A stretch of DNA of 64,000 nucleotides from an uncultured delta proteobacterium (GTDB lineage: Bacteria > Desulfobacterota > Zymogenia > Zymogenales > Zymogenaceae), in contig CAVTLK010000005.1 in the NCBI GenBank assembly GCA_963735595.1, positions 640,001-704,000 of the forward strand. Reading direction: 5' to 3'. Below are positions 18,001 to 21,000 of this stretch, in pieces. How positions within the stretch are numbered: the first letter of the stretch is position 1; the number at the start of each line of letters is the position of its first letter. Made by a program: the position numbers.

Positions 18001-21000
18001 GCAACACTATGGACGGCGGCAAGATAGTGGTGGACGGAATGGTGGGGGACGTCTGCGGCTATGCCATGCGGGGCGGAAAGATCCACATAAAGGGAGACTG
18101 CGGCTACCGGGTGGGAATCCACATGAAGGAGTATTACGAGAAAGTTCCCGTGATCGTGGTGGGGGGTAAGGCAGGGGATTTCTTCGGCGAGTACATGGCG
18201 GGAGGAAGGCTCATCCTGTTAGGGATGTATTCTCGACATCCCGAGCGGCCGATCGCGGGGCTCTTCATGGGAACAGGGATGCACGGCGGGGCGATCTTCG
18301 TGAGAGGCGTAGTGGACGAGAACCGTCTCGGCAAGGAGCTTGGTGTGGCCGAGCCCAGCCAACAGGACAGAGAGATCCTTGAGTTCTTTATCGCCGATTT
18401 TGCCAAGGACTTTGACCTTGACGCCGCCGAGATAATGTCGGAGCCGTTCTACAAATACTACCCAAAATCACTGAGGCCTTACGGCAATCTCTACGCCTAT
18501 TGAGGTTCGGACCTCACACCTGTTGTTACTCACCCTCCGTGGATTGCCTTCCGGGGGGTTTGTATTTCGGCGGTAAACGAGGCGGGCCTTCTCGTGACGC
18601 GGATATATATCGGGCGGGCGCTCGACGGCCGCGGAAACGCTCCTGTCGTCCTCTCGGGTTCGACGCAGAGGCAAAACGGGCGGGGATAGCGTAATCATAC
18701 GTGCATCAATTTAAGAAATCTTTATCATTAATTATAATACGTTTTTCGTTGAAGGGAGGGCGGTAAAGAGGTATACTGTATACATCAGCGTTGTCTCGTC
18801 TTTCATAGCCTCAGCTGATCCGTCCTGTGTCGGAGATCAGGTATACCTATCCGGGAGACGATAATGGTGGAAAAAACGGTATCCAATATTTCGATTCGCG
18901 CGACGATAGACGCCACGTGCGAGATACTGGGCGATAACGGCCTCAAAGCCCTGCTCAACTACGCGAAGCTCGGCTATATCCTGGACAACATCCCCGACTA
19001 CTCTTTTACCAAGAGCTACGAGGAACGCGAATTCAACGGCCTGACTTCGAGTTTCTATTCGATTCTCGGCACGTCCGGCGCCAAGGCCCTTTTCAGGCTA
19101 ATCGGCAAGGCCATCGGCGGTAAAGTCCTCGCGTCCGGGGCCTTTGATTCCCTCAAGGACCTGCCGGCCGATGAAAAGGCCCTCAAGATGCTGGAGATAT
19201 ATGCCATGGCAACGGGAAAGGGGAAGGCCTTTCAAGAGGGAGATATCGTTGTTTACGATAACCCACAGTGCACGGCATGCGTCGGATTGAAGGACAGCAC
19301 CCCCGTTTGCACCGCGCTCAACGGCATGTTCGACGAATACTTCAAATGGGCCGGCGTTACGGATAAAAGGACCGTGGAGACGAAGTGCATCGCAATGGGA
19401 GATACGGCCTGCCGGTACGAGCTGGTTTGAAGATGTAATACGCAAGACGCCGTTAGATATACTTTAACGGATAGGATCATTCACCCATCCTTAATCCATT
19501 CCAGTTAGGAGCGCGAGATGGCAGACAAAACGGTTGGAAATATCGTAATTCGGCTGACGCTTGACTCCGCAGAGGAGGTGCTTGGCATCAACGGGCTCAA
19601 GGCGATCCTCAACTTCTCCAAGATGGCCCACCTGTTGGAGAACAAGCCCGACTATTCGTTCGAGAAGAATTTTACCGACGACGAATTCCGGGCGGTTTCG
19701 TCCAGCTTCGCGGAGGTTCTCGGTTTGGACGGCGGACGGGCGATCTTCCGCCTGATCGGCAAAGCGATGGGCAAGAACGCGATCAAGATCGGGGCATATG
19801 AGTCGCTCAAGGAGCTGCTTCCCGACGAGAAGCTCTTCAAGGCTATCGAGCTTTACTCCCTGGTCTCCGGCAGGGGAAAGGTGATGAGGGAGGGGGACGT
19901 GATCGTCTTCGACAATCCCCAGTGTACGCTGTGCGCTAAAGTAAAGCACGACCACCCGATCTGCAGCCTCTATAATGGGTACCTGGATACGACCGTCGAA
20001 TGGTCGGGGGTCACGGGGAAGAAGACGGTGGAGACCGCCTGCATGGCGATGGGAGATAAATCCTGCCGGTTTGAGGTCCTGCCGGTTGACTGACGGGTGC
20101 CGCCCTGTGCCCCGGGCCGCGCCACAGAATCTCTCTGACGGCATCGTGCCGTTGAATAGAGCGCGTATCTATGAGCCGCCCCTGTTTTACGGGCCGGCTC
20201 TTTTTCGTGACTTTGATTTCAGAGGAAGAGGTGCACAAGGTGGCGGAAAAGACGGTATCGAACCTGGTATTTCGTGTGGTTCTTGACGGGGCCGAGGAAG
20301 TGCTCGGCGTCAACGGTGTGAAGGCGATCCTCAACTTCTCCGGGCTGTCCGACCTGTTGGTAAACAGACCTGATTATTCCTTTGAGAAGAACTTCACCGA
20401 CGACCAACTGCGGGGCATCTCGTCCAGCTTCGCCGCCGTTCTGGGCATGGACGGGGCCCGGGCCGTTTACCGCCTGATCGGAAAAGCCAGCGGCAAAAAA
20501 ACAATCGAGGTCGGGGTATATGATTCCCTCAAGGACCTGCCGCCCGACGAAAAGCTATTCAAGGCCGTCGGCCTATATGCCATGGTTACGGGGAGGGGAA
20601 CGGTAACGAAAGAGGGCGACGTGATCGTCTACGACAATCCCCAGTGCTCCGTCTGCAAGGACGTCACGTACGGTCAACCGGTTTGCAGCATCTATAACGG
20701 GTACTTTGACTCGGTCATCGAATGGATGGATATCAAGGACAAGAAGTCGGTGGAGACGGCCTGTATCGCGATGGGGAGCAAATCCTGCCGGTTTGAGATC
20801 CTGCCGGTGGACTGATGGGCGTGCGTCGATTTTATCGCAAGCAAGCCAAAACGGAAGGGCCCCGAGAGGGCCCTTTTCTATGCCGTCGAATCGCTATCGT
20901 CGCGCCGCGATGCCTTTTACCGACGCTTCGGCCACGGCACGATCATGGAGACACGCTTCCGGTACCCCTCGTACTCCTTGCCGAAATCCGCAAGCAGCCT

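Follow-up and report, generated by a model that had tools for sequence, protein, structure and literature searches.

Stand-alone V4R proteins are widespread and, to our knowledge, have no assigned partner or ligand. Alone or fused, V4R domains are described as signalling in cis or in trans (Podar et al. 2008, PMC2253512), and seven (PMC2253512) or nine (PMC2614490) copies have been given for Ignicoccus hospitalis. The haem-free H-NOX of Vibrio has a Cys oxidation switch next to its Gly81/Gly154 hinge and, once oxidised, inhibits the kinase HnoK (PMC7108781), and the V4R domain of MthMsvR contains five Cys (PMC3729527), so that redox sensing by such proteins has a precedent; the MsvR paper itself doubts that CxxC belongs to a shared mechanism (PMC3729527). 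MopR holds zinc through C155, E178, C181 and C189 (bioRxiv 2023.07.11.548514), while Thor-TRAPPC3 binds it through four Cys, and a longin-TRAPPC3 fusion has been reported in Asgard archaea (PMC10933270). The first-pass annotation of the genome studied here regarded a bacterial signalling layer of free V4R/H-NOX modules as undescribed. Stand-alone V4R proteins signalling in cis or trans and the Ignicoccus copies were in print in 2008, whereas we found no paper on a V4R expansion of the size reported below in a bacterium, nor a description of a bacterial link between V4R proteins and a roadblock/GTPase pair, in the literature reached, which lacks most subscription papers. The main text of the Zymogenia class paper (bioRxiv 2021.03.22.436540) mentions neither V4R nor LysR.

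The window, the whole stretch of 64,000 nucleotides that was analysed, carries three V4R genes in a row, which are same-strand ORFs that all match PF02830, as first annotated, together with three further full-length paralogues (Table 1). The PF02830 E-values are 5e-6, 1e-8 and 2e-8 for genes 1, 2 and 3; genes 2 and 3 pass the cut-off of the profile and gene 1 falls under it (26.9 vs 31 bits). Besides V4R, only weaker MetOD1 matches were found in these three proteins. Gene 2 shares 66% identity with gene 3 and 51% with gene 1. For gene 3 the GTG start given in the table agrees with the paralogues, and the start of the longest ORF, at 20171, lies 69 bases too far upstream. A split glutamate synthase operon precedes the array, with a gap of 360 bases. 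The hairpin between genes 2 and 3 (-16.8 kcal/mol, z -3.57, with 0 of 200 shuffles equally stable) would uncouple gene 3 from genes 1 and 2; the consensus scan did not list it. The stability of the hairpins at 18525-18575, 20094-20140 and 20845-20890 was not above that of shuffles, and the two sigma-70-like matches upstream of gene 1, against 1.6 expected, are not above chance.

Table 1. Positions of the V4R genes and local elements in the window.
Feature	Position	Strand	Remarks
Two sigma-70-like promoter matches	18711..18777	+	upstream of gene 1
V4R gene 1	18864..19430	+	188 aa; full-length H-NOX-like subfamily; CxxC, C and ExxCx7C
V4R gene 2	19518..20093	+	191 aa; protein chosen for the structure model
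Terminator-like hairpin with U run	20173..20205	+	between genes 2 and 3
V4R gene 3	20240..20815	+	191 aa; start GTG 20240
Further full-length V4R paralogue	44970..45557	-	195 aa
Further full-length V4R paralogue	49774..50406	+	210 aa
Further full-length V4R paralogue	51361..51993	+	210 aa; recent duplicate of 49774-50406

V4R is a known domain family, and its expansion in the host family is real and unusually large. Our recount confirmed 38 PF02830 matches in this 3.6-Mb genome and 16-41 in each of nine relatives within the host family, against 0-2 in all 51 other genomes of the phylum, and an iterated profile raised the number of loci in this genome to 40. When all 3612 called genes were clustered against each other, V4R formed the second-largest paralogue cluster (33 members, after 40 ABC ATPases). 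A comparable expansion in Chloroflexota had been left as a possibility. We counted it in 201 genomes of that phylum, scoring up to 29 candidates per genome, and found a PF02830 match in 59 genomes, one of them unpublished, and 0-7 matches per genome; a second large expansion there was therefore rejected, and the size stands out against Chloroflexota too. A census of the full-length subfamily, in which 10 candidates were scored for each genome and E<=1e-15 was required, found it in 10/10 family genomes and in 0/291 other genomes of the phylum. At E<=0.001 the subfamily matches 3337 clusters, and its relatives are mostly from Chloroflexota. When P0057, which is sister to the main clade of the family, was used to scan metagenomes, nine loci were returned, all of them distant V4R fusions. 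Long fusion forms were absent from 8000 candidates, which is weak evidence, and no locus of this genome exceeds 300 aa, as had been noted before.

The V4R proteins had been treated as one kind of protein, a view that did not hold, since the 40 loci fall into three subfamilies. Full-length H-NOX-like proteins, in which an N-terminal helical subdomain precedes the V4R core, account for 25 intact and 6 interrupted loci. The other nine form a separate group of MopR-type sensor domains, five of them single and four, of about 300 aa, with an internally duplicated N-terminal module. The CxxC described as conserved is a property of the first group: of its 25 intact copies 22 have it, and the nine MopR-type copies all lack it. 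In an alignment of 150 members, between 141 and 150 sequences retain C136, C139, C149, E172, C175, C183, G81 and G154; for the zinc-ligand set C...ExxCx7C the counts are C149 in 150, E172 in 142, C175 in 148 and C183 in 147. H-NOX proteins have a proximal His and the haem motif YxSxR. YxSxR occurs in 2 of the 150 members, no alignment column exceeds 21% His, consistent with the earlier statement that no His is conserved, and the H-NOX profile PF07700 gave 0 matches in this genome at E<=0.1, a search in which 2 of 14 controls gave a signal.

The structure model of gene 2 (pLDDT 94.7) has four kinds of top match, tied within about 1 Z: Thor-TRAPPC3 (7yh2; Z 12.1, rmsd 3.6, 139 residues aligned, covering 51-190), PoxR (Z 11.7), DmpR (Z 11.5) and H-NOX, the last represented by the Shewanella protein 4u99 (Z 11.2, rmsd 3.9, 164 residues aligned, covering 6-191) and by 6mx5 (Z 11.0, again 6-191). 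The TRAPPC3/Bet3 chains 7b6d (Z 10.8) and 2cfh (Z 10.4) follow, and the sensor of AraC-type VirS (Z 9.5) covers the full length. C149, E172, C175 and C183 are spaced as the zinc ligands of MopR, while Thor-TRAPPC3 aligns with the V4R subfamily at CxxC, C149 and C183; the full-length subfamily thus holds both ligand sets, which could mean two metals, or one metal accompanied by a redox pair. The glycine hinge of H-NOX has its counterparts in G81 and G154. The main subfamily is therefore predicted, from the model and the conserved residues, to adopt a complete haem-free H-NOX-like fold with a Cys/Glu zinc site, in line with the fold and Cys-based metal site that the first-pass annotation had put forward.

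The V4R genes of this genome stand alone. Within 60 bases upstream, none of 33 V4R genes has another gene on its strand, compared with 32% of 2223 other genes, and a single one has such a gene downstream. Among 110 neighbours of the loci in this genome there was no recurring partner, and TetR neighbours were not significantly enriched. We found no convincing motif shared upstream of the 33 genes, as the best 6- to 8-mers were not significant after allowing for the words tried. A sigma-54-like promoter pattern precedes two of the 33 genes (vs 0.4%), and since these two lie near sigma-54 activator genes, some copies may be regulated targets. The converse idea, that sigma-54 activators without sensor domains are the trans targets, was rejected because nearly all sigma-54 activators here carry REC or PAS, one lacking an N-terminal domain; in this genome no V4R sensor is fused to a sigma-54 AAA domain.

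The V4R subfamily, one roadblock subfamily and one GTPase subfamily are inherited together. At E-value thresholds of our own choice, and with alignments whose rows from both the host family and Anaerolineae favour those lineages in the counts, an Anaerolineae-type MglA-like GTPase was found in 9/9 family genomes vs 0/242 others (E<=1e-40), and an Anaerolineae-type roadblock protein in 8/9 vs 3/242 (E<=1e-30). The 201 Chloroflexota genomes behave in the same way: V4R is present in 38, the GTPase in 38 and the roadblock protein in 39, while 37 genomes have all three and 162 have none, so that 37 of the 39 genomes holding any of the three genes hold the full module. Of the 38 V4R-positive genomes, 17 have the roadblock gene directly upstream of the V4R gene and 13 have the GTPase no more than 2 kb upstream; one or both linkages occur in 18, and in the other 20 the genes co-occur with no linkage found. 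At one locus (G080:C23) REC, DUF4388, GTPase, roadblock and V4R genes form a single run, and layouts among 20 Chloroflexota loci include roadblock-V4R-REC/GGDEF (4), DUF4388-GTPase-hydrolase-V4R (6) and TadA-HTH-TPR-GNAT-V4R-hydrolase (5). Chloroflexota genomes, 23 in number (13 negative, 9 V4R-positive and 1 with GTPase and roadblock only; 25 were chosen and 2 left out as they had no usable locus), were placed in an RpoB tree, in which the module-positive ones fall into about two clades, with weak deep nodes. Together with the host family, the co-occurrence thus rests on about three lineages.

When 11 Anaerolineae neighbour genes were searched in our genome, close counterparts (E<1e-40) were found only for the GTPase (53% identity), the roadblock protein (66%) and one widespread hydrolase, and the receiver-domain neighbour gave generic REC matches only. 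The Anaerolineae-type roadblock gene is single-copy, 88-97% identical across the host family, and follows a REC-DUF4388 gene. The GTPase and a second roadblock gene head a CheR-MCP-CheW-CheY-CheB-CheA-CheC operon, whose GTPase-roadblock-CheR-MCP order is kept in 10/10 family genomes; this genome encodes two MCPs and gave no match to flagellin. No solved structure is close to the GTPase at E<=1e-10. The V4R copies are about 30% identical to the roadblock-linked gene of Anaerolineae and 20-66% to one another, and such diversity beside a conserved single-copy roadblock protein means that many copies may have left this partner.

These results raise the possibility that the V4R subfamily docks on the roadblock-GTPase switch as a set of ligand- or redox-gated inputs, to which we give a probability of roughly 45%. 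Full-length copies would then act in trans as interchangeable input modules for one roadblock/small-GTPase switch. Each copy would have its own promoter and would sense a cue of its own, either a hydrophobic ligand or the thiol redox state; sensing would move the two subdomains about the Gly81/Gly154 hinge, and the V4R protein would dock on the roadblock dimer, changing the nucleotide state of the MglA-like GTPase, which would feed the chemosensory operon that it heads. In a more specific and more doubtful form, about 30 separately transcribed Bet3/H-NOX-like proteins would compete for that one switch, with the three folds the same as those of eukaryotic TRAPP/Ragulator and each copy reading a different ligand or redox cue; the five-Cys-plus-Glu site could hold two metals, with C136/C139 and E172/C175 at the ends and C149 and C183 bridging. 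Against both stand the small number of independent events, the fact that no V4R gene of this genome adjoins a roadblock or GTPase gene, and the presence of a roadblock gene in only 2 of 80 Anaerolineae loci found via one orthologue, which mostly adjoin miaB. Moreover, the 14 longer V4R hits scanned are fused to REC, TIR or Ser/Thr kinase domains, not to roadblock or GTPase, and transfer of a whole ancestral operon would give the same co-occurrence with no lasting partnership. In a predicted complex of gene 2 with two roadblock chains and the GTPase, the control in which the GTPase was replaced scored within the margin, which counts neither for nor against docking. We infer docking from co-inheritance and from fold analogy, with Bet3/TRAPPC3, which shares the fold, and the longin-TRAPPC3 fusion of Asgard archaea as precedents. 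Because the genome pairs some 30 paralogues with only one conserved candidate for the hub, a few purified proteins would suffice to test the idea.

The first-pass annotation had the V4R proteins acting in trans on kinases or enzymes. That the genes stand alone was borne out; kinases or enzymes as targets have weak support. That the proteins are haem-free H-NOX-type sensors regulating histidine kinases, cyclases or other two-component proteins in trans seems rather unlikely to us, even though the full-length match to 4u99 and the Cys spacing and glycine hinge shared with the kinase-inhibiting Vibrio H-NOX argue for it. Signalling genes lie near 8/33 loci (null 3.3, p 0.015 in one of three tests), a modest enrichment, REC-V4R and kinase-V4R fusions exist, and in some other genomes of the phylum short V4R genes adjoin large PAS/REC signalling genes. 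However, those kinase-adjacent proteins belong to a shorter subfamily, and the fusions carry V4R at the C terminus, the usual place of outputs. Neither the loci of this genome nor 20 loci from relatives have a conserved kinase neighbour, no conserved case of a kinase, cyclase or MCP fused or adjacent to V4R was seen, and no kinase family is co-expanded as a distinct cluster.

Enzyme-like or carrier functions, in which the proteins would be carriers, sinks or small enzymes for acyl or aromatic metabolites amplified along with acyl-CoA metabolism, we also hold to be unlikely. The cavity that takes up palmitate in Bet3 is the one in which PoxR binds phenols, and a role in transporting ligands has been proposed for Thor-TRAPPC3 (PMC10933270). 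BchJ matches 75 of the 150 members below its cut-off, ATC hydrolase gives weak matches, and the clusters of this genome contain 31 AMP-binding genes, 20 crotonase-like genes and 15 genes for acyl-CoA dehydrogenases; two relatives have four V4R copies interspersed among the genes of an amino-acid uptake/transketolase cluster. Acyl-CoA genes are nevertheless not enriched near the loci (6/33, null 3.7, p 0.17), no polar catalytic set beyond the metal ligands is conserved in the V4R alignment, and enzymes and carriers usually sit in the operon of their pathway, contrary to the solitary arrangement of these genes.

Copy number might instead be mostly the product of birth-and-death drift, with few working copies and the rest redundant. 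The spread of copy numbers among relatives is consistent with this, as are tandem arrays that vary from genus to genus, the 6 interrupted loci among 31 full-length ones, and gene 3 itself, which is missing from the locus in one close relative (G002) and cut after residue 166 in another (G003). Since the housekeeping genes cheA and alaS are likewise split in this assembly, however, the interrupted loci may be sequencing or assembly errors. Furthermore, V4R genes are under purifying selection: dN/dS is 0.10-0.21 over five orthologue pairs (0.10-0.15 for gene 1 with its G002 and G003 orthologues, 0.14-0.21 for gene 2), compared with 0.03-0.06 and 0.21-0.25 in controls, and 0.23-0.28 between genes 1, 2 and 3 themselves. 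A tree of 233 V4R domains, whose deep nodes are weak and which names no donor, contains several deep clades common to different genera. We therefore consider drift quite improbable as the main explanation.

The absence of LysR regulators that prompted the first interpretation is real and small: LysR_substrate matches 0/10 family genomes vs 49/51 others of the phylum, with short partial HTH_1 matches in 3/10 family genomes, but those 51 genomes have a median of one LysR gene, 0 or 1 in 26 and no more than 3 in 46. That V4R proteins replaced LysR as a small-molecule-sensing layer is close to negligible in probability, since 40 substitutes are not needed to make up for the loss of one or two genes, two other genomes of the phylum (G030 and G037) lack LysR and have no V4R match, the V4R proteins here match only V4R, MetOD1 or XylR_N and carry no DNA-binding domain, 29 TetR-type and about 75 receiver-domain ORFs remain beside sigma-54 activators, and a single clade represents one event.

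Returning to the proposed roadblock-GTPase inputs, we compared the family with described systems. DUF2378/TIGR02265 of myxobacteria, a member of the H-NOX-like clan that occurs in multiple copies, is a look-alike in its features (0.85), with no PF09536 match here at E<=0.1. It comprises proteins of about 200 aa whose function is given as unknown (PMC9257966). The genes of the MglA GTPase, MglB/roadblock and PATAN (DUF4388) module are present here and linked to signalling operons; the main text of Wuichet and Sogaard-Andersen 2014 (PMC4316618) names no V4R partner, and its Table S2 may list V4R neighbours. MsvR of methanogens (NF053755) is the best NCBIfam match for 135 of the 150 members, far below the cut-off (31.8 vs 220 bits) and over the C-terminal half only, and it has a DNA-binding domain that the V4R proteins here do not. 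The phenol sensors MopR, PoxR and DmpR have the same C/E/C/C zinc spacing, and nine loci are of their type, but the sigma-54 AAA domain is missing here and four loci have the duplicated module.

With published stand-alone V4R proteins (PF02830, COG1719) the domain is the same, at 7-9 copies in Ignicoccus vs about 40 here, and the differences are the N-terminal subdomain, which completes the H-NOX architecture, and the co-inheritance with roadblock and GTPase. Even if these proteins do not dock on such a switch, theirs is the largest V4R expansion found in this analysis and a good set for ligand screening. The zinc-site H-NOX proteins of Vibrio cholerae and Shewanella oneidensis share the full-length fold, the spacing of three Cys and the Gly81/Gly154 hinge; they stand alone and act in trans, as the V4R proteins here would. 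Unlike H-NOX, the latter have no proximal His, almost no YxSxR, no PF07700 match and no adjacent kinase gene, and they add CxxC. Among chains of solved structure, Thor-TRAPPC3/Bet3 gives the best match by sequence (E 9e-8) and a tied top match by structure; it has a CxxC-containing zinc site and occurs in genomes that also encode roadblock proteins and small GTPases. The match leaves out the N-terminal region, where TRAPPC3 dimerises by its helices and the proteins here have the extra subdomain instead. If V4R proteins do dock on the roadblock-GTPase switch, they would be a bacterial working analogue of Bet3-longin-Rab, with implications for how TRAPP arose and for the role of MglA-like GTPases outside myxobacteria.

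The proteins of about 300 aa with a duplicated module (table) possibly represent a sensor dimer in single-chain form. Their pair on contig C4 is preceded by a gene for a REC-PAS4-sigma-54 activator, and the pair itself carries a sigma-54-like promoter.

Features in the genome under study (G000)
Feature	Location
Pair of ~300-aa proteins, MopR-type N-terminal module twice plus single V4R core (L014)	C4:151713-153660
~300-aa protein, same architecture	C2:654959
~300-aa protein, same architecture	C5:473437
MglA-like GTPase and roadblock at head of complete chemosensory operon (L214)	C5:127136-134462
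Glutamate synthase split into five genes	window 13357-18503

When a protein atlas was searched for look-alikes of one V4R protein (L003:5492-6121), excluding clusters with PF02830, the nearest were unnamed Gemmatimonadota clusters of about 215 aa (0.90) and the myxobacterial DUF2378 (0.85), in both of which the fold may have expanded in parallel.

The solved chain nearest to the roadblock protein (L213:5730-6095) was 7f8m_A (E 1e-35), which we take to be an Asgard roadblock, the code being unconfirmed by paper text; MglB was much more distant. Gene order in the tabulated chemosensory operon is the same in 10 of 10 family genomes (GTPase-roadblock-CheR-MCP compared). G000 carries two MCP genes, and its genome gave no flagellin match.

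In two other genomes (L175, L177; G007:C53, G008:C18), four V4R copies are interspersed among the genes of a cluster that encodes an aminotransferase, an amino-acid permease and a transketolase-like protein; its counterpart in G000 (C1:391-400 kb) contains no V4R copy. On four metagenome contigs (L222-L225), a 478-aa protein with a C-terminal V4R lies directly 5' of an ATPase gene, presumably KaiC-like.

Housekeeping genes are interrupted at several places in G000, namely cheA, alaS and genes for sigma-54 activators, which suggests that the assembly holds indel errors.

The window also encodes a secreted-looking protein made up from short tandem repeats (25922-26356); another such protein (L027:2581-3009) matches the 5-fold beta-flower family. 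The five glutamate synthase genes specify an FMN domain with ferredoxin, a ferredoxin, an NAD(P)H oxidoreductase, an amidotransferase and GXGXG, resembling archaea, where this enzyme is likewise split.
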